DNA of 64,000 nucleotides from a virus, in the IMG/VR virus record IMGVR_UViG_2791355197_000001, positions 23,154 through 87,153 of that record; one strand, 5' to 3'. Shown here piece after piece: positions 1,604 through 10,587 of this stretch (its first letter is position 1; each line of letters begins with the position of its first letter). The translations under genes were made by a program, and so were the position numbers. The notes beneath the pieces were generated by a model. It searched no databases, was not told the DNA's origin, and worked only from the letters and a program-made list of their open reading frames with translations.

Positions 1604-4600
1604 TCACTCCGAAATTGTGAGCGTGCCGGTCGTGAGATTGAAGACAACTTTGCCATCCGAGCTCTGGATGATGCCGGCCGTCAGCGTTCCGACGTTTCCC
1701 GTGATGGCGCTTAGAGTCCCGATATTCATCATGCGCGCGGTAACGGTGCCGTCGAGATACATATTGCCGGTGAACCCGAGCGACGCGACGCCGGCGATGG
1801 TGCCGACCGTAAAGACAGGCTGAGGGGCTCCGCCGTTGTAACCCGGCAACTGGATCTGGAATTTGTCTGCGACGACGATGAAGCTCGAGACGCCAGCGCC
1901 GCCATTGATCAAGTTGAAGCCGGTCGCATAGCCGTTGACATTCAACGTCACGCCGTACTGTGCGGCGGCATAGCCATTCAGCGTCGCGACCGCGTTTGAG
2001 ACCGTATTGACCGTCGAGAAGCTGGGACCGAACGTTGCAGCAACCTGGCTTTGATATGAGGCCAGGCTCGTATCGAGATCTGTGAACGACTTCGCCACCG
2101 TCTGTGCGCTCGAAAAGCCCGGCCCCAACTGCGTTTGCACCGTGTCGATGCTGGTCGCCAGCGCAGCGTCCGCCTCCGTCATCACCTGCTGGAGGCTGCT
2201 GATGCTGGCGAACGCGGCAGCCGATCTGGATGACAGTTCAGACCTAACTTCCTTCTTATCCAGCCAGTTGCGTGCATCCTGATTGGCGACGATGCCCGTG
2301 ATCACCTGCAGCGCGTCGTTGATCGCCTGGTTTAGTTGATCGGTGACGTCGGTGACCTGCTTCTTCAGGGCCTCGTTAAACGACTCGAGCGTCACGAGAC
2401 CAGGCGACAGCTTGACCGTCGGAGCATCGAGATCGACGGTCGAATAGGCGCCGCGCATTGTCGCGTTGACGGCCTGCACCCGAAGCGTCGCGGCCGCCAG
2501 GCTGACGATGACGTCGAACTGGTTCTCGGCGCCCTCGTAGACCTGGGTCCAATTCTTGCCGCCGTCGTAGGTGATGCCGGCAACGTAGTAGATGGCGCCT
2601 TCGGTCGGAAACCAGCTAGCGAATAGCCGCGGCTCGGCGGTGCCCTGGCTGATGTATGCGTTGAGGCCGTAAACCAGCGGAACCTTGGCATTGGACGGAT
2701 ACTGCGGGCTCGGCAGGGTTGGCGGCGTGCCGAGATCGGTCGCATGGACGCGCTCGTCATCAACAACCAGACTGAGCGAGCAGGTGTCACCATTCGGCGT
2801 TCCGTTCAGAACCAGGCAGAGCTTCGACGCGCTCTCGCCAGTGCCGAGTTCGAAGGATGGGGGCTCACCACCATCCTCTCGCGCCAGAACCGCGGCCAAT
2901 GTGGTCGACTGCGCCGTTTGTGCCGCCGCCAGGCTGGTCGGGTCGAGGTTCGCGATCGCAGGGTTGGCGCCCTCGGAGCACACGACGGGACCGAAGAACT
3001 TGCCGTTCGGCATGCGCAACCGGATGTAGAACGGTCCGCTATCCCAGTTCGGCGCCGGATCCAGCGTTAGGGCATTGCCGGCGACGGCGACGACCGCACC
3101 ACCATATCCATATGCCTGCGGCAGCTCGGACTGCACACGGATCACGGAGCCGAGGGTGATCGCCCTGCCCTCGTACTCGACGCCGATGGTGACGTTCTCG
3201 CGGCGATAGAACGACTGCAAATAGGTGAACGCGCACTCGCGGAAGGCCTGCAGGCGATTGACGATGCCGTCAATTCGGATCGTGGTGGCGTTGAGCGAGG
3301 TGAAAGTGTCGCTGTTCGGCGGGTACTGGACTTGCGCCGCCAGCCAGGTGTTCTCGTCGACATATTCGAGGATGACCGCATCCGGATCCTCCTCGCCGAG
3401 CATCGTGAAGTCGATCGCGATCGAGTCCCGCACGATCTCGCGATCGGTGAGGAGCATTGTCGGGACATCGCGCCACTCATCGCGAACGATGGAGACGGTA
3501 TCCCCCAGCCAGAAGTGCTTTGCGCGCGCAACGGCAAGGATCTTGTCGAAGGCGTCCGGCACCGCGACAGCGGAGTCGAAGCGGAAATCGAACGTGTCGC
3601 CTCGGCTGGTGCAGCCTGCCGCAAAGTTCACGACGGCGTTGAAATCGACTTTCGAAATGCCGAGACCCGAACCGTATTGGGTGCTCGTGACACTGTCGAA
3701 GAAGGCCCAGCCCGGATTCCTCGTGGCTTGCAACACGAAGGCGGATCCGTTCCAGACCTGCAGTTTCCGGGTTGCCAGCACGCCGAACTTGTACGAGCCC
3801 TGCGTCGACTGTGACGCCTTAATCCGGATCGCAATGGTCGAGACGTCCGGGAACGAATTGTTGCCTTTCAGGAATGATCTCAGACCGGCCCAGATCACCG
3901 AGTTGGAGCCACCGGTGCCGGCGAGCTCGGCGTCCTCGCGCCTGAAGCGGACCAGGTACCGCCCCGGGACGACGTCTACCTTCACGCTGTTGCGGACTGG
4001 CGCCTGCGATGCGTACTGAAACGACTGCGAGAACAGCGTAACGAACGGACCGGTTTGGTTGCCGGCGTCGTCGCAGGTGGCATATTCGGCCGTAAGCCCG
4101 ACGTTCGAGTACCCGATCGAGTTGTCCTTGCCGCTGATGGTGAAGCAGCCGGCCGGGAACGCGAAGTCCACGGCGATCGACTGAGAAAGCGTGCCGGCAG
4201 GGTTGGCGACAAACGGCCCGGCCCAGGCGCCTGGTGCCGTGGCCGAGGGCGGTAGCGGCGCACCCATGGCATCGTATTGACCGCCTGACGTACCGGTTCC
4301 TGAAGGCAGTTGCTGACCGTTGACCTCGATCGACTGGTCGACGTTGGTTGGAAATAGCGTGACAGTCGCGCCTGGCTCGTAGAACGCCACCTGCGCGCCG
4401 GCGAATGACGCCGAAACACCGCTGACCGGATCCCAGAAGATCGTGTCGTCGACGTAGATCTTCTCGTAGGACATGCTGCCCATCGAGACCGACAGCAGCA
4501 GGTTGAGGTATTGGTCGTTGCCGACGAATTCGGCCCATGGCGTCGCCGCGAAGTCGGGGAACGCCTTCAGGCGGCCGTACCAAACCGGCAGCGGCTGCCC

Positions 4601-5203
4601 CAGTTTCGCGACGTTGCCCTGCGCCGTCACCGAATAGATCTGGTCCGGCGTCGCGTTCGGCGAGTTGGTCGCGCCAGCCTTCGGCAGGATCAGGGCATTG
4701 ACGAGCAGTGTGCCGCCGATGGCGAGACCGGCGCCGAGGGCCGTGGCGCCGAAGCTGCCGGCGGTGAGACCGAACAGGCCGACCGGCGCCCAAAGCGCGA
4801 ATGCGGACACCGCCACCAGGGCGACGATGCCGATGATCTGCTTGACGGCATTCCCGCCCTGCCCGCCACCGCGCGGGAAGCTGAGGAAGCGGACCTGGTC
4901 GTCGGGACCGATCCGGCGGTGACGCCATTCCTTCCTCAGCACCGCCTCGCCGTTGATCTCGAGGATGGTCGGCAGGCCCTTCGCGAACTGCCAACCATAG
5001 GTGCGATCGCGCCAAGCCCAGTTAGTCCGGCGCAGGAAGGACGTCACGGTCTCGCGTGAGCGCGGTTGCGCGCGCGCGACCTCGAGACCCGGCATCACGA
5101 GATGCAGGGCTGGATTGCGGGTACCGCGCTCACGCCGACGGCGGTCACGCGGCCGCGGCACCGGCGCGCGAGGGGCCAGAACTGGCTTCAGCGATCCATG
5201 CAT
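1604..5203 (-). CDS. Tail tip / host-specificity protein (lambda J-like, DUF1983-like C-terminus)
   Basis: 1199 aa; N-terminal ubiquitin-like tail-assembly segment plus hydrophobic stretch, AKLGQPLPVWYG motif, C-terminal YGVTLNVNGYATGF...ADKF; position after NlpC/P60. Confidence 0.85.
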   Translation of the reverse strand: MHGSLKPVLAPRAPVPRPRDRRRRERGTRNPALHLVMPGLEVARAQPRSRETVTSFLRRTNWAWRDRTYGWQFAKGLPTILEINGEAVLRKEWRHRRIGPDDQVRFLSFPRGGGQGGNAVKQIIGIVALVAVSAFALWAPVGLFGLTAGSFGATALGAGLAIGGTLLVNALILPKAGATNSPNATPDQIYSVTAQGNVAKLGQPLPVWYGRLKAFPDFAATPWAEFVGNDQYLNLLLSVSMGSMSYEKIYVDDTIFWDPVSGVSASFAGAQVAFYEPGATVTLFPTNVDQSIEVNGQQLPSGTGTSGGQYDAMGAPLPPSATAPGAWAGPFVANPAGTLSQSIAVDFAFPAGCFTISGKDNSIGYSNVGLTAEYATCDDAGNQTGPFVTLFSQSFQYASQAPVRNSVKVDVVPGRYLVRFRREDAELAGTGGSNSVIWAGLRSFLKGNNSFPDVSTIAIRIKASQSTQGSYKFGVLATRKLQVWNGSAFVLQATRNPGWAFFDSVTSTQYGSGLGISKVDFNAVVNFAAGCTSRGDTFDFRFDSAVAVPDAFDKILAVARAKHFWLGDTVSIVRDEWRDVPTMLLTDREIVRDSIAIDFTMLGEEDPDAVILEYVDENTWLAAQVQYPPNSDTFTSLNATTIRIDGIVNRLQAFRECAFTYLQSFYRRENVTIGVEYEGRAITLGSVIRVQSELPQAYGYGGAVVAVAGNALTLDPAPNWDSGPFYIRLRMPNGKFFGPVVCSEGANPAIANLDPTSLAAAQTAQSTTLAAVLAREDGGEPPSFELGTGESASKLCLVLNGTPNGDTCSLSLVVDDERVHATDLGTPPTLPSPQYPSNAKVPLVYGLNAYISQGTAEPRLFASWFPTEGAIYYVAGITYDGGKNWTQVYEGAENQFDVIVSLAAATLRVQAVNATMRGAYSTVDLDAPTVKLSPGLVTLESFNEALKKQVTDVTDQLNQAINDALQVITGIVANQDARNWLDKKEVRSELSSRSAAAFASISSLQQVMTEADAALATSIDTVQTQLGPGFSSAQTVAKSFTDLDTSLASYQSQVAATFGPSFSTVNTVSNAVATLNGYAAAQYGVTLNVNGYATGFNLINGGAGVSSFIVVADKFQIQLPGYNGGAPQPVFTVGTIAGVASLGFTGNMYLDGTVTARMMNIGTLSAITGNVGTLTAGIIQSSDGKVVFNLTTGTLTISE

Positions 5204-5224
5204 GTCAGTCAGAAAGTCTTCGTG

Positions 5225-5443
5225 TCAGCGCCGGACCTTGGAATCTCGGATCGTGAAAGTGCCGGACGCCAAATCGATGGACAGGCTGCCATCGGCAGAA
5301 CGCAATATTCCAGCGGTCACGGTACCCAGATTTGCATCAACAGCACGCGGCGCCGCGGCCTGCGATGCTGGAGCCGTCCTGAACAAGGCCGGCCCAAAAA
5401 CAGGGACTGCAAACAGCGCTGAAAGGAACGAACGACGGCGCAT
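5225..5443 (-). CDS. 72 aa protein with Tat-like signal (MRRRSFL) and a copy of the J C-terminal motif
   Basis: ATG at 5443 with GGAGA upstream; 15 of 30 residues identical to the last 30 aa of J by manual alignment. Confidence 0.6.
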   Translation of the reverse strand: MRRRSFLSALFAVPVFGPALFRTAPASQAAAPRAVDANLGTVTAGILRSADGSLSIDLASGTFTIRDSKVRR

Positions 5444-5444
5444 G

Positions 5445-5861
5445 TCATGTCTCCATTGGTTCGAAAAACGTGAGCTTCTTCCAGCCCATTTGCCGCAGGG
5501 CCAGAACGGTTTCGCAGGCGACGCCCTGCCTCTCATCGCAGTGGATGACCCGCTGCTCCGACTGCAGCCAGACGCCGATATGCGCCGGCACCCGCAGGTG
5601 GGCCATGAGGACGAGCGCGCCATCCGCAGCGACGACAAGACCGCCGGGCCCCTCTGGCACTTCTCGCCACAAGCCCCGCTCGGGATGCCCCTCGAAGGAT
5701 TCCAGCACCCAGCGCTTCGAGAAGCCGCTCGGCACTGAGACGTGCGGAAGATCGCGCCCGAACAGTTCCTTTTCGACGTGGCAGGCAAAATCCCAGCAGT
5801 TTCGCGTCTGCCATGCCCACGGCTCGCCGATGAGCGGCGCCAAAAACTCGGAACGCGTCAT
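5445..5861 (-). CDS. NlpC/P60-family tail assembly peptidase
   Basis: NCWDF catalytic Cys motif and HIGVW...IHC; start at 5861 overlaps the upstream stop. Confidence 0.85.
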   Translation of the reverse strand: MTRSEFLAPLIGEPWAWQTRNCWDFACHVEKELFGRDLPHVSVPSGFSKRWVLESFEGHPERGLWREVPEGPGGLVVAADGALVLMAHLRVPAHIGVWLQSEQRVIHCDERQGVACETVLALRQMGWKKLTFFEPMET

Positions 5862-6385
5862 GAGGGCAGCAGGCTCGGGAACTGGATGTAGTCGTAGTTT
5901 TTCGTGAGGCGCGGAAACCGTTTGTTCTGCAGGTTCTTCACCATCACGGTGCCGGTGATCGAGGTGCCTACCACCTTGACGTTGCGGAGCTCGAACTCCA
6001 CGGCGCCATACGACGGCTGCGTGAGATCCGAGGCGAGATATTCGCGGTACAGGACCGAGATGTATTCGCGGTACCCGAGCGCCGCTCGGATCTTCGGGAG
6101 CAACTCGCGATTGACGTTGTCGATCTTGATGTTGGTCTGCGGCGGCTGTCCCTGCCGCTGTTCCGGATACGTCGACTCGAACGGGCACGCGATGAACGTC
6201 ACCGTCTCGCCGGCATTGCGCGGCGCGGCCAACTCGATGCCGAATGTCATGTCGTCGCCGACATTCGCGACAACCCGCGCCGCGACATCGAACGATGACT
6301 GCCAGATCTCGAGCGTGTGGTAGACCCGCGCGCTCGGCGGGCACGACGCATAGGCCTCGAGGAGCGCTTCGTTATGCGTCGCCAT
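5858..6385 (-). CDS. DUF1833-like minor tail protein (gpL position)
   Basis: 175 aa; YASCP...TLEI, FIACPFE, IDNVNREL pattern; synteny. Confidence 0.75.
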   Translation of the reverse strand: MATHNEALLEAYASCPPSARVYHTLEIWQSSFDVAARVVANVGDDMTFGIELAAPRNAGETVTFIACPFESTYPEQRQGQPPQTNIKIDNVNRELLPKIRAALGYREYISVLYREYLASDLTQPSYGAVEFELRNVKVVGTSITGTVMVKNLQNKRFPRLTKNYDYIQFPSLLPS

Positions 6386-6756
6386 CAGAGGTCAAACACC
6401 ATGAGGGTCATGGTGGCGGCGATGCGCTGCGACGAGGTCGGCACGTAGCTCGGCTTGCCACCCTTTGCGAACTTGCAGGTCTTCGTGACGTACGCGGAGC
6501 CGAGCCAAACTGGCGCCGTGAACCTGCCGGAGCCGTTGTTGAGCGTGTCGCGCACCCAAGCCACGAAAACGTCGTGCTCGGCGTTGGTGAGGCTGATCGT
6601 CTGCACGACGGTCCCGACGTTGTCGCCAGGCCGCGGCCGCTCGCGGGTATTGCCACCTTCCATATCCGTCGCGATCGGATCGAGGAACCGCTTCTGGATC
6701 TGGAAACCGCTTTTCTGCGGTCGGCTGTTGACAGCGGGCCACGACGGAAGAGCCAT
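6385..6756 (-). CDS. Distal tail protein (gpM position)
   Basis: 123 aa immediately after the tape measure; DMEGGNTRERPR, LNNGSGRFTAPVW. Confidence 0.7.
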   Translation of the reverse strand: MALPSWPAVNSRPQKSGFQIQKRFLDPIATDMEGGNTRERPRPGDNVGTVVQTISLTNAEHDVFVAWVRDTLNNGSGRFTAPVWLGSAYVTKTCKFAKGGKPSYVPTSSQRIAATMTLMVFDL

Positions 6757-6759
6757 GAA

Positions 6760-9700
6760 CTAACTCCCGAAACCCTTTTGGCGTGACGAAATGGCCTGAG
6801 AGATCGGGCCATTTCTTGCCGCGTCGTCGACCATGAGACCGGTGACAGCGTTCTTGAACACGACGTCGACTTGCGTGCCGTTGTTGGTTCGGCTGACGCT
6901 GGTTTGAGGATCCGAGCCCGACGGCGCGTTGTAGATGTTCACGACGACATTGCCCGAGGCGGCGTTGTCGTTCGCGGCGCCTCCGATCCCGCCGGCGGTG
7001 ACACCGAGGCGGCCGTCGGGGCCGCGTCGCAGCGGCATCACGGCCTCCGGGCCGGCCTCGCCCATCAAGCCGGTGCCGCCGTTCGCCATCGGGAAGAGCA
7101 CCGGCCGGGTGACGACGCCGCCGCGCGCGAACGGCACGATGTTGCCGCGGGCGAAGATGTTGCCCAGCGCGCTCGGCGCCACCGGGCCGAACAGGTTGCT
7201 GCCGGCGGTGCCGGGCGAGCCGAAGGTGACGCCAGCGGAACCGAGGAGCGACCCGAAGTCGGCGCCGCCGCCGAGACCGCTGAACGAGCTCTGGAGGCTG
7301 CGCATCAGCGGACCGACGACCATCAATTTGATGATCATCTCTTCGATCGCTCGGATCACCAGCTTCGAGGTGTCCGAAATAGCCTGGCCGAAGCTCTTGG
7401 TGCCGTCGATCGCATCGGTGAACCCGGTCACTAGATCGCTGGAAACCGTCGAGGAGACCTGGCTCAACGCCGCATTGGTGCGCAGCCCTTGCGCCTCGAC
7501 CGAAGCCAACGCCGTCGCGACATCCGGATAGACCGTCTTCAACTGCTGTGCGATCTGAACGTCATCGGGCGACAACAGCGCGGTCTGCCGGCCGATCCGG
7601 ATGTCGTTCTGGACCTGCCTCAGGGCGTTCGCCTGCGCCGCGGCGCCCAAGGCCTTGGCCTGAGCATCGATCGCGGCTTTGTCCTGGTCGGTCAGTTCCT
7701 TGTGGTTGCGGACCGCATCGGTGAGCGCGGTCATCCGGGCGGTATATTCGGCCGCGGCACCGGCGGACATGCCGATCGTCGCGGTCTGAATCGTGGTCGC
7801 GTCCGCTTGCGCCTTGATCTGGAGCGAGCCGTCGGCCTGTGCGCGGGAGAGCGCCAATTGGTCCTTGATCTGCTTGTCGGTCAGCCCGGCACCGGCTTCC
7901 TGGGCCCGCTGGAGCTCGAGCGTCTTCTGCTTGACGCTGTCCAAGACGCTGGCCGACTGGCCGAGCGCCGACATCCGCGCCGACTGGACGCTGGACGCGA
8001 TGTCGAGTTGGAGGGCCGACGTCGCGCGGCCGGTGTCGGCCGGTGAAGCATTGATCTGGGCCGCCTTGGTACGGATCTGCTCGAGCCCGGCGGCAAGGCG
8101 TTCCGCGGGGCTGGCCGCGGCGCCGAGGAATTCGACGAGGGCATTCTTCGGCAGGGCCGCCAGCGCGGCGCTGGTCGCCGCGATAGACCGCTGGAGCTGG
8201 TCCATGGTCTGGCCGACCTTGGCCAGCTTCTGATCGACGTCCGGAGCCGCGGCGAGATCCTGGAGCAGCTTTAGTTGGTTCTGGAGATCCTGCGTCTGGC
8301 CGATGATCGGCAGCGCAGTCCGGATAGCCTGCTGCTGCGCCAGCGATTGCTGCGCATTGCGCGCTTCGTCAGCGGCGGTCTTCTGGCGCTGGAGCGCGGC
8401 GGTGAGCTTGTCGACCTGCGCCTGGGCGGCGGCGACCGCAGCGGGGTCAGCGATGTACCCCAGCGTTCCGGTCTCCGGATTGACCGTCCGGCCACCCGTC
8501 TTCTGCAGAAATTCGAGATTGCGCTGGGCCGCCTGGAGTTGCGCGTCGAGCGTCTGCACCGGGTTCAAGACATTGTAGATGCTCTTGCCGATCGAATCCC
8601 ATGCATTCGAGACCGTGTTGCCAAGCGCCGTCCACGCAGTCCGCGTTGTCGAGACGGTGTTCGCGACGTCCAGCAGGCTCGACTTCACGCCTGCCGCAAG
8701 AACGACCTGTGCAGCATAGGTCTTGTTCTGAGCGACGAGGTTCGTGATGTTCTGCTTCGTCGCGGCATCCAGGAAGCCGAGACGCTGATTGAGGTCTTCG
8801 GCACCCTTCACCGGATCGGCGAACGCCTGCGCCAGCATCTTTGCCGCTTCCGTGGCGTCGACGCCGAAGATTGTCGAGATGTCCTTGCCCATCTGGACGA
8901 TCGGCAGGATGTTGTCGTTGGCGATCTTGCCAGTCTCTGCCAGCGTCGCCGCGAATGACCGCGCCTCAGCGACCGAGAGTCCGGACCGGGAAGACCCGGC
9001 ATCAGCGATCGAGTTAATGCTGCCCGCGGTGGCGCCGCTGGCGCGGCCGGACCCGAGGAGCGACCGATTCACCTCCTGCTGCTTGTCCTGAAACGAGATC
9101 AGCGCAGCAACGCCAAGCCCGATCGCGCCGGCGATGCCGCCCCACACCAGACGGCCAACGCTGAGCAGGCTCAAGAACTTCGACCCGATCACGCTCGCGA
9201 AGTCCACGATGCTGGCCTTCGACGACTGGAAGATTTGGAAGACCTGGCCGCCCTGCTGGGCGAGGATCATGAACGGGGACTGCCCGAGCGCGAGGCCGGT
9301 CAACACGTCGTTCAGCTGATAGGAGAGGTTGACGAGCTCGCCGGACGCGACACGGCCCGTGGTACTGGCGTTCTTCAACTGCTGCTGGACGTCGGTGAGC
9401 CGCTTTGCCAGCATCACCTGCGCCTGCTCGTACTCGCCGGTCGAGATGTAGCCATCGTTCAGCAGCTTCTTGTAGGAGGCCATTTCGGCACCGAGTCGCG
9501 TGAACTCGGTCTCCAGCGGCGCGATCTTGGCGCGCAACTGCTCCGCCGCGGCGGTCATCTTCTGCTCGGCCGCGATCGCTTCATCGAACTCGGCCGCCAT
9601 GGCTGCACCGGCGGCATCGATATCCATGAAGGCTGCGGCCGAGGCTCTCGCCGATTTGGTGACTTGGTCGTAGCCGTAGGCCTGCGCGATCGATTGCTGC

Positions 9701-10587
9701 GTGCTGGCCGCGAGATGCGCGGCCCGCGCCTGCTCGATCTGGTCGAGGCGCGCCACTTCCGCGGCCAAAGCCTCGTAGGTAGCGCCTAGCGACGTTGCCG
9801 AGGCGCCGCCGCCGCCCAGCGCGGCCGTTAGGCTCTGCTGGAAATTGGTGCCGGCCTGTTCCGCGCGCATTCTGGCGATGTCGTCCAACTGCCGCAGGTT
9901 GGCGTCGAAGACGCTTGCGGAATCCTTGGCGGATTTCGCGACGCCGGCGATCAATGCGGCATCGAGATCCTGCGAGAATGCTTTCCCGGTTTCCTGCGCC
10001 TGAGCTCGAGCAATCCCCTCAAGGCCGCCGAACTGCGCCAGGAAGGCATCCGCGCTCTCCTGAGCCGACTTGGTGTCTCCGCCGATGTTGAACTGGGCGT
10101 TGATCCCGGCCTGGGCCCGCTGCGCCGCGGTCAGTTGCTCGATAGCAGCCGCCGCGCGGGTCGCGACCTCCGCATGGAGCGAGTATTCCTCGTTCAATCG
10201 CGTGACAGCACCGGCGATCGAGACGAATCCCTTCTCGGCCAGCGACGCAGCGTCGGCGGTCAGGCCGAACTTCTGGTAGGCGGCGTCGAGGAGCAGGTTG
10301 ACGCGGTCGAGGCCCATGCCGCGATCGGCGGCGTTGCCGATCCGGCGGATGATGGCCTCGAACTGCGCGCCGGCGCCGTAGCCGTCGAGCAGCGATTTGC
10401 TGACCGAGGCCATGCCGCCCGGGATCCTCGCCAGCGCAGCATCGGACTGCGCAAGCGCCGCATTGCGAGCCTTATCGCTCGCAATCATCTTGTTGTCGGC
10501 GTCGACCTTCTGCTGCGCGCCCCGGACATAACCCGAGGCGTCCAAGTCAGACGTGACTCGCAGGGACGACAGCGCCACTCCCGCCAT
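6760..10587 (-). CDS. Tail tape measure protein
   Basis: 1275 aa Ala-rich helical protein; NLSYQLNDVLTGLALGQSPFMILAQQGGQ (lambda-type TMP motif); C-terminal FARGG...GEAGPEAVMPL. Confidence 0.93.
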   Translation of the reverse strand: MAGVALSSLRVTSDLDASGYVRGAQQKVDADNKMIASDKARNAALAQSDAALARIPGGMASVSKSLLDGYGAGAQFEAIIRRIGNAADRGMGLDRVNLLLDAAYQKFGLTADAASLAEKGFVSIAGAVTRLNEEYSLHAEVATRAAAAIEQLTAAQRAQAGINAQFNIGGDTKSAQESADAFLAQFGGLEGIARAQAQETGKAFSQDLDAALIAGVAKSAKDSASVFDANLRQLDDIARMRAEQAGTNFQQSLTAALGGGGASATSLGATYEALAAEVARLDQIEQARAAHLAASTQQSIAQAYGYDQVTKSARASAAAFMDIDAAGAAMAAEFDEAIAAEQKMTAAAEQLRAKIAPLETEFTRLGAEMASYKKLLNDGYISTGEYEQAQVMLAKRLTDVQQQLKNASTTGRVASGELVNLSYQLNDVLTGLALGQSPFMILAQQGGQVFQIFQSSKASIVDFASVIGSKFLSLLSVGRLVWGGIAGAIGLGVAALISFQDKQQEVNRSLLGSGRASGATAGSINSIADAGSSRSGLSVAEARSFAATLAETGKIANDNILPIVQMGKDISTIFGVDATEAAKMLAQAFADPVKGAEDLNQRLGFLDAATKQNITNLVAQNKTYAAQVVLAAGVKSSLLDVANTVSTTRTAWTALGNTVSNAWDSIGKSIYNVLNPVQTLDAQLQAAQRNLEFLQKTGGRTVNPETGTLGYIADPAAVAAAQAQVDKLTAALQRQKTAADEARNAQQSLAQQQAIRTALPIIGQTQDLQNQLKLLQDLAAAPDVDQKLAKVGQTMDQLQRSIAATSAALAALPKNALVEFLGAAASPAERLAAGLEQIRTKAAQINASPADTGRATSALQLDIASSVQSARMSALGQSASVLDSVKQKTLELQRAQEAGAGLTDKQIKDQLALSRAQADGSLQIKAQADATTIQTATIGMSAGAAAEYTARMTALTDAVRNHKELTDQDKAAIDAQAKALGAAAQANALRQVQNDIRIGRQTALLSPDDVQIAQQLKTVYPDVATALASVEAQGLRTNAALSQVSSTVSSDLVTGFTDAIDGTKSFGQAISDTSKLVIRAIEEMIIKLMVVGPLMRSLQSSFSGLGGGADFGSLLGSAGVTFGSPGTAGSNLFGPVAPSALGNIFARGNIVPFARGGVVTRPVLFPMANGGTGLMGEAGPEAVMPLRRGPDGRLGVTAGGIGGAANDNAASGNVVVNIYNAPSGSDPQTSVSRTNNGTQVDVVFKNAVTGLMVDDAARNGPISQAISSRQKGFGS

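Follow-up and report, generated by a model that had tools for sequence, protein, structure and literature searches.

Within the 64,000-nt stretch of viral DNA analysed here (the window), a small gene, S, encodes a protein that joins a predicted export leader with a twin-arginine core to a short C-terminal module which, as judged by alignment and structure prediction, is homologous to the end of the tail-tip protein J encoded next to it. S belongs to a family that is unannotated and so far undescribed in Rhizobiales prophages, and the gene is accessory and mobile, being inserted at differing points of tail-tip modules. As to its role, our leading reading, to which we would give somewhat short of an even chance, is that S may be an exported mimic of the fibre end, which would prevent adsorption or hide the receptor. 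The features on which this account is built are collected in Table 1.

Table 1. Positions of S, its parts and its neighbours in the window, and of related features in other loci
Feature	Position	Strand	Remarks
Small ORF S (P0001), stop codon included	5225..5443	minus	72 aa; ATG at 5441-5443
Predicted export leader of S, residues 1-29	5357..5443	minus	MRRR, RRSFL twin-arginine-type core, uncharged stretch, AxA-like sites
J-end module of S, residues 34-67	5243..5344	minus	three-strand beta meander; BLASTP, hhalign, AF2
Shine-Dalgarno motif GGAGA	5450..5454	minus	6 nt upstream of the S ATG, inside the last K-like codons
K-like minor tail protein gene	5445..5861	minus	Cys/His peptidase-like motif; stop at 5445-5447
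DUF1833 gene	5858-6385		
Tape-measure gene	6760-10587		
J (TipJ family), tail tip / central fibre gene	1604..5203	minus	1199 aa; NF040662, E 2.8e-88; Pfam Phage-tail_3 and Phage_Tail_Tip
N-terminal extension of J, residues 1-200	4600-5203	minus	
C-terminal module of J, residues 1166-1199	1607..1708	minus	homologous to the S module
Spacer between S and J	5204-5224		
Left copy of the 8-nt direct repeat TGACATGC	5440..5447	minus	K stop, C, S start
Right copy of TGACATGC	5200..5207	minus	TGA, C, J start
Three genes directly downstream of J	1160-1597; 719-1159; 318-722	minus	
S and a further ORF at the K-J junction	L053:6990-7460		
Conserved first ~45 nt of the small gene	L051:7001-7045; L052:2455-2499; L054:7001-7045; L056:5105-5149; L057:9001-9045		
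Leader on unrelated small ORFs	L065:183-434; L068:4958-5227; L069, L071, L072:7001-7405; L070:7001-7270; L073:7001-7255		
J with ...AAKR end	L045 (G286:C1:2920200-2928200); L049 (G216:C1:864400-872400); L050 (G272:C1:5784700-5792700)		

The operon that harbours S has the layout of a lambda-like tail-tip module and runs from the tape-measure gene through a 123-aa gene, the DUF1833 gene and the K-like gene to S and then J, with a gap of 1 nt between the K-like stop codon and the S ATG and a spacer of 21 nt between the S stop codon and the J start. The K-like protein matched phrog_329 ('minor tail protein') weakly and had no match in Pfam or NCBIfam. An initial annotation, made from the letters of the DNA, had called S as a 72-aa ORF with its own GGAGA, an RRxFL start and an AxA-like site, all of which was borne out; it had also let the ORF end at ...TIRD, where in fact five more residues, SKVRR, follow. 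A consensus scan of 4900-6400, run with an E. coli-type consensus, found no promoter-like site, the corresponding scan 3' of S found no terminator, and RNA folding around the gene was ordinary (z 0.22). Lacking a promoter or terminator of its own, S is presumably co-expressed with the tail proteins, probably late, and its position shows the gene to be co-transcribed with the tail genes.

By its conservation, S is a genuine small protein-coding gene. A Shine-Dalgarno-like motif precedes it in all eight loci inspected, and comparison with its orthologue in the IMG/VR locus L053 yielded a pN of 0.21 and a pS of 0.70 (dN/dS roughly 0.1, with dS saturated); because pN is far below pS, this comparison indicates purifying selection at the protein level. 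The possibility that the 5' half of S is frame-shifted fibre sequence was considered and rejected, as the other two frames, inspected by eye, held nothing fibre-like. On the far side of the gene, the spacer before J has no clear Shine-Dalgarno motif and the J start is uncoupled from the K stop codon after the insertion, and J translation may here rely on re-initiation after S.

With the K-like protein as the query against 400 genomes of the genus, related tail modules were detected in 12 other genomes. Twelve loci from 10 of these genomes were examined, and in each of them the K stop codon adjoins the J start in a TGAcATG-type junction. Alignment with the closest relative, G392, whose K is 93% identical, reveals an insert of ~240 bp in the window. 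Two copies of TGACATGC, 240 bp apart, bound this insert, and G392 has a single copy at its uninterrupted K-J junction. Furthermore, the insert alters the end of K (...EPN before the stop codon in G392, ...EPMET here) and supplies the GGAGA. The sole relative with S at the same K-J junction is L053, in which the tape measure is 90%, K 87% and J 84% identical to the proteins of the window and the small gene 63% identical to S; a further 62-codon ORF follows S at that junction, where the window has S alone. As TGACATGC is the stop-C-start overlap itself and the K-J junction took up genes twice, recombination at translational-coupling junctions is suggested.

In other loci the gene occupies other places: it precedes a K-like/DUF6950 gene in three (L051, L052, L056), follows the first gene behind the tape measure in L055 and L061/62, and stands directly after J in phi2LM21, L054 and L063; wherever a locus includes a J-like gene, S lies within 0-3 genes of it. 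Its base composition is likewise atypical, with a GC3 of 0.59 against 0.78-0.86 for its neighbours in the window, and in 9 of 9 other loci the GC3 of S is below that of the large neighbouring gene.

An exhaustive phmmer search through 1.8 billion representatives returned small proteins of 71-90 aa that match S over its full length, and a profile search enlarged the family to at least 54 protein clusters of 68-105 aa. Among the members, the named sources are the Sinorhizobium prophage phi2LM21 (p49), Ensifer adhaerens, Shinella and 'unclassified Bradyrhizobium', all annotated as hypothetical, and the nearest homologue (P0029) bears the source name Bradyrhizobium; the family ranges over prophages of Rhizobium, Sinorhizobium/Ensifer, Shinella and Bradyrhizobium. 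Its members have a three-part build, in which a near-invariant leader is followed by a variable linker of ~10-45 residues, often Pro/Ala-rich, and by the J-end module with the consensus A-N-I-G-x-V-x-A-G-x-I-R-S-x-D-G-x-x-x-I-D-L-x-x-G-x-I. All 54 clusters retain the ORF and the leader as well as the module's Gly/Asp pattern.

Matches of the family to Pfam, PHROG and NCBIfam were limited to weak signal-peptide and tail-tip hits, and our search of the literature turned up neither the family nor its leader motif. A word-based homologue search with the single S protein returned S itself and nothing else, and the single protein compared with 100 relatives gave significant matches to J C-termini only. 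The family profile, run against 400 genomes of the order with 14 candidates scored per genome, found no further full-length member at E <= 1e-6, and the S gene is shown to be rare, not absent, in this sample. A search for longer, fused forms of S gave just one J-like protein. When 50,697 phage records were searched with four family members as queries, full-length S occurred only in the predicted prophage phi2LM21, and virulent Rhizobium phages matched only via the module inside a tail protein.

The resemblance of this module to the J end had been noticed initially as 15 identities in 30 residues, a count that is correct; BLASTP extends it to 16 of 34 identical residues (76% positives, ungapped, E 5e-9) between S 34-67 and J 1166-1199. 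Profile comparison by hhalign, with 44 family members set against 10 J C-termini, gave a probability of 98.8% (E 1.1e-16) across the last 49 columns of both. In AF2 models, strands were predicted at residues 46-48, 54-57 and 62-65 of S (family alignment, pLDDT 85-91) and at fragment positions 79-81, 87-90 and 95-98 of the last 100 J residues (pLDDT 92); with the alignment offset of +33, the predicted strands of the two proteins coincide exactly at homologous positions. In many members the homology begins earlier, with PLVFEDGxLKL in the small proteins matching LPIVFENGELKL in J, and extends back into the Phage_Tail_Tip / central straight fibre region. PF09327 matches one of 44 family members (E 0.0019), and S is a fragment-sized derivative of PF09327 proteins, not a full-length member of that family.

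In lambda gpJ, the corresponding region is a beta-sheet prism, which is followed by an Ig-like receptor-binding domain (PMC11101478). The J proteins considered here terminate at the module end, and since J stops there, S copies the distal end of a fibre that itself lacks a recognisable receptor-binding domain. The same module is present three times inside a 790-aa fibre protein (P0015) that ends in an S74 chaperone domain, and is thus a general structural element of fibres. Foldseek against the PDB returned nothing significant, its top rows, at E > 1, being triple-beta-helix spikes, and the ESM Atlas provided no useful lead. A 2065-aa protein with seven matched stretches (P0005) was rejected as a relative, as it is a SpaA/CarboxypepD_reg repeat protein and not a fibre.

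Every complete S locus with a J-like gene has the module at the C-terminus of that J, and the pairing of S with its cognate J can be followed in eight such loci. Cognate pairs outscored shuffled pairs there (permutation p about 0.001, in loci that are not independent), and the own J was the best partner for four of the small proteins; the cognate excess is small except in L054 and is confounded by the relatedness of the loci. In L054, S and J end in nearly identical stretches of 38 nt and have their final 12 residues in common, which is the product of recent gene conversion. For the S of the window, the score is 90 with its own J and 87-88 with three foreign J proteins, and because of these foreign scores it is not a duplication of this phage's own J. 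The 'old retained duplication' first suggested for S is therefore not supported: the DNA is indeed diverged, but S is not a copy of its own J, given the dispersed family, the foreign scores and the absence of the insert from 12 related loci.

J and its surroundings showed some variation of their own. The protein begins with an extension of ~200 residues, conserved in relatives, in which a ...RGGGQGG motif precedes a long Gly/Ala-rich hydrophobic stretch; this region has no Pfam match and recalls a fusion of J with a lambda gpI-like protein. Directly downstream of J lie three genes of 134-146 aa, conserved in relatives (70-84% identical in L053) and without matches in Pfam, PHROG or NCBIfam, which are candidates for the receptor-binding parts missing from a J that stops at the prism of the fibre. 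Paralogy of these three, considered by eye, was rejected as there is no significant similarity among them, and a VSKPGxDA motif is common to two. In three related prophages J reaches ~1290-1320 aa, a C-terminus ending in ...AAKR replaces the module and the downstream genes differ; these related prophages exchange the distal part of J as a cassette.

At its other end S starts with MRRRSFL and an uncharged stretch, and residues 19, 26 and 29 each close an AxA-like site. The family leader follows the pattern M-(K/R/N)-R-R-S-F-L-A-A-L-F-A-A-P, with M1, R3, R4, S5, F6, L7 and P14 invariant in 44 aligned members, and all 54 members combine a basic N-terminus, an uncharged run (median 17 residues) and AxA-like sites ending at residues 17-24, the commonest cleavage-type pattern being ...AKA at residues 20-22. 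The sole matches of the family profile among PDB sequences were the signal/transit peptides of PsbU and of a periplasmic binding protein. The Pfam model TAT_signal (PF10518) matched 6 of 44 members weakly (best E 0.0019) and TIGR01409 one of nine (E 0.033), the S of the window being matched by neither, and with ~22 aa the leader is short for a Tat signal. A lipobox was found in no member of the family; the S of the window has no Cys, and the Cys at residues 11-25 in 4 of 54 members have no lipobox context. TatC is encoded in the host genome. From these features of the sequence, S probably crosses the inner membrane, the invariant RRxFL pointing to Tat, with Sec possible too, and the leader would presumably be cleaved and S act in the envelope.

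The N-terminal 14 residues are far better conserved than the remainder of S, to a degree that exceeds the usual level for signal peptides, and in Rhizobium/Sinorhizobium-type loci this conservation partly includes synonymous sites, for instance CGC AGG for two arginines. In five loci (Table 1), conservation at the level of the DNA covers the initial ~45 nt of the small gene despite otherwise unrelated upstream contexts, synonymous sites included (ATG AAA CGC AGG TCA TTC CTC GCG GCG), which may reflect recent leader exchange, RNA-level constraint or codon constraint. A leader-type start (MKRRSFLA...LG..P...) was also met on small ORFs with unrelated mature parts in tail modules of alphaproteobacterial phages, and judging by these sequences the leader seems common to a wider set of small tail-module proteins.

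How might such a protein act? If S is a fibre-end mimic, its leader would take it across the inner membrane, and the Tat route would permit export of a pre-folded, perhaps trimeric, mini-prism. The mature peptide of ~40 aa in the periplasm or envelope would then be a soluble mimic of the fibre end, which would most likely hinder the same phage or related ones in adsorption or entry and could occupy the envelope component touched by the fibre end; S might instead mask receptors on the dying cell and so spare the progeny from debris. The mimic would be kept in step with the fibre by occasional gene conversion from J, of the kind observed in one relative. Small exported proteins with genes next to those for receptor binding are the classic means by which siphophages close the cell behind them; the known ones, such as Llp and Cor, are lipoproteins that do not resemble the fibre. 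Envelope exclusion, which follows this precedent, is favoured as the most economical account. Against it, S has no homology to known exclusion proteins, the copied piece is the end of a structural beta-prism and not a recognisable receptor-binding domain, and a periplasmic protein could not, until the cell lyses, get at the outside of a surface receptor. Moreover, expression in the prophage state, which is needed for classical superinfection exclusion, is doubtful because S has no promoter of its own and begins 1 nt from the K stop codon. With no receptor-binding domain in the copied piece, receptor occupation would not be the sole possible act of the mimic.

The invariant RRSFL, the AxA-like sites, the signal-peptide matches in the PDB and the presence of TatC would serve as well if S were exported for some other job in the envelope, either as a Tat 'hitch-hiker' that carries a partner docking to the fibre end or as a release/lysis factor, a reading that we hold to be possible though rather doubtful. 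It would suit a gene that lies in a late tail operon without its own promoter, a module that is structural and may in J be a docking surface instead of a receptor binder, and a leader that other tail modules combine with small, unrelated mature domains. However, no partner gene consistently co-occurs with S, the gene lies outside the lysis cassette, and there is no specific pointer to any one such function.

In phage fibres, the N-terminal anchor is conserved and the distal part variable. S could by this analogy be a protein that stays in the cell and is built into the virion as an accessory of the tail tip, with the N-terminal ~14 residues as the anchor and the J-like module extending or decorating the fibre. 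The strong conservation of these residues, partly at synonymous sites, their occurrence in front of unrelated C-terminal parts in tail modules and the co-transcription of S with tail genes would all agree with such an arrangement. Nevertheless, we judge it unlikely, since the full anatomy of a signal peptide is seen in 54 of 54 members and the PDB matches are signal peptides only; furthermore, most close relatives make the same tail without S, and the position of the gene is not syntenic.

The proposal, made in the initial annotation, of a chaperone or cap for the J trimer, here taken as a cytoplasmic assembly factor, fares worse and appears very improbable. Although S adjoins J and has the same terminal strands, so that it could pair with J chains during their synthesis, and although the K-J interval is the place of the assembly gene I in lambda, the export leader disfavours this role, 12 related loci whose J ends are near-identical do without S, and the gene comes after J in phi2LM21 and L054. 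That S is a functionless recombination scar, a fragment of a fibre gene left open by chance, is the least credible of all, since the flat GC by codon position in the S of the window (0.60/0.62/0.59, without periodicity), its status as a singleton at the 90% clustering level and its truncation against the nearest relatives, which run on after ...IRD, are outweighed by a three-part design kept across the family, a pN far below pS, conserved Shine-Dalgarno motifs and a confident AF2 fold for the module.

If S, as an exported fibre-end mimic, does block adsorption or entry, it would represent a new and easily recognised route of exclusion, namely mimicry by a fragment of the virion, and would give a handle on the envelope contact of TipJ fibre ends without a receptor-binding domain in rhizobia, with a bearing on the phage resistance of rhizobial inoculant strains. 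Going further, S might be the prototype of a class of self-mimics, that is, pre-folded and probably trimeric miniatures of the fibre end, exported by Tat, matched to J by gene conversion and competing with incoming or progeny tails for an envelope component; we offer this as a speculation that is more likely wrong than right. In such a class the leader would be a shared 'export cassette', a notion that arises because related phages fuse it to other small tail-module proteins. Whatever the function of S, many Rhizobiales prophages have this family, with its invariant leader and a floating position in the tail module, as unannotated features.

Among known systems, morons resemble S in that they are extra genes between genes that are adjacent in relatives, have an atypical base composition and can lie within the tail cluster, as does the exclusion moron gp15 of HK97. 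S differs in having neither a promoter nor a terminator of its own, and it is translationally coupled to the preceding tail gene. With regard to TipJ and the central straight fibre of lambda gpJ (PF09327), homology of the S module takes in the final ~49 residues of those TipJ proteins that end after the beta-prism; S has this terminal piece only, placed behind an export leader, whereas the hub domains, the helical shaft and the remaining prism are absent from it. Within the family, gene p49 of phi2LM21 (MF614627) encodes a protein 41.7% identical to S over residues 1-65 (tblastn) and follows directly after 'tail fiber protein J', and thus lies downstream of J, whereas S lies upstream; p49 is annotated as hypothetical only and is not discussed in the phi2LM21 paper (PMC5537653).

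Our preferred reading of S as an exported mimic is most reminiscent of Llp of T5 and of the Cor proteins of the phi80/N15/T1 type. Both Llp and Cor target the receptor of their own phage from the periplasmic face of the outer membrane, and prevent superinfection as well as loss of progeny on debris (for background, bioRxiv 10.1101/2022.06.28.497910; 10.64898/2026.03.26.714494). Like them, S is small and phage-encoded, bears an N-terminal export signal (predicted in its case) and has its gene beside those for receptor binding or the tail tip. In contrast, Llp and Cor are lipoproteins, whereas S has no lipobox, has no promoter of its own and is unrelated to them in sequence, and it is S, not Llp or Cor, that carries a copy of the fibre end of its own phage.
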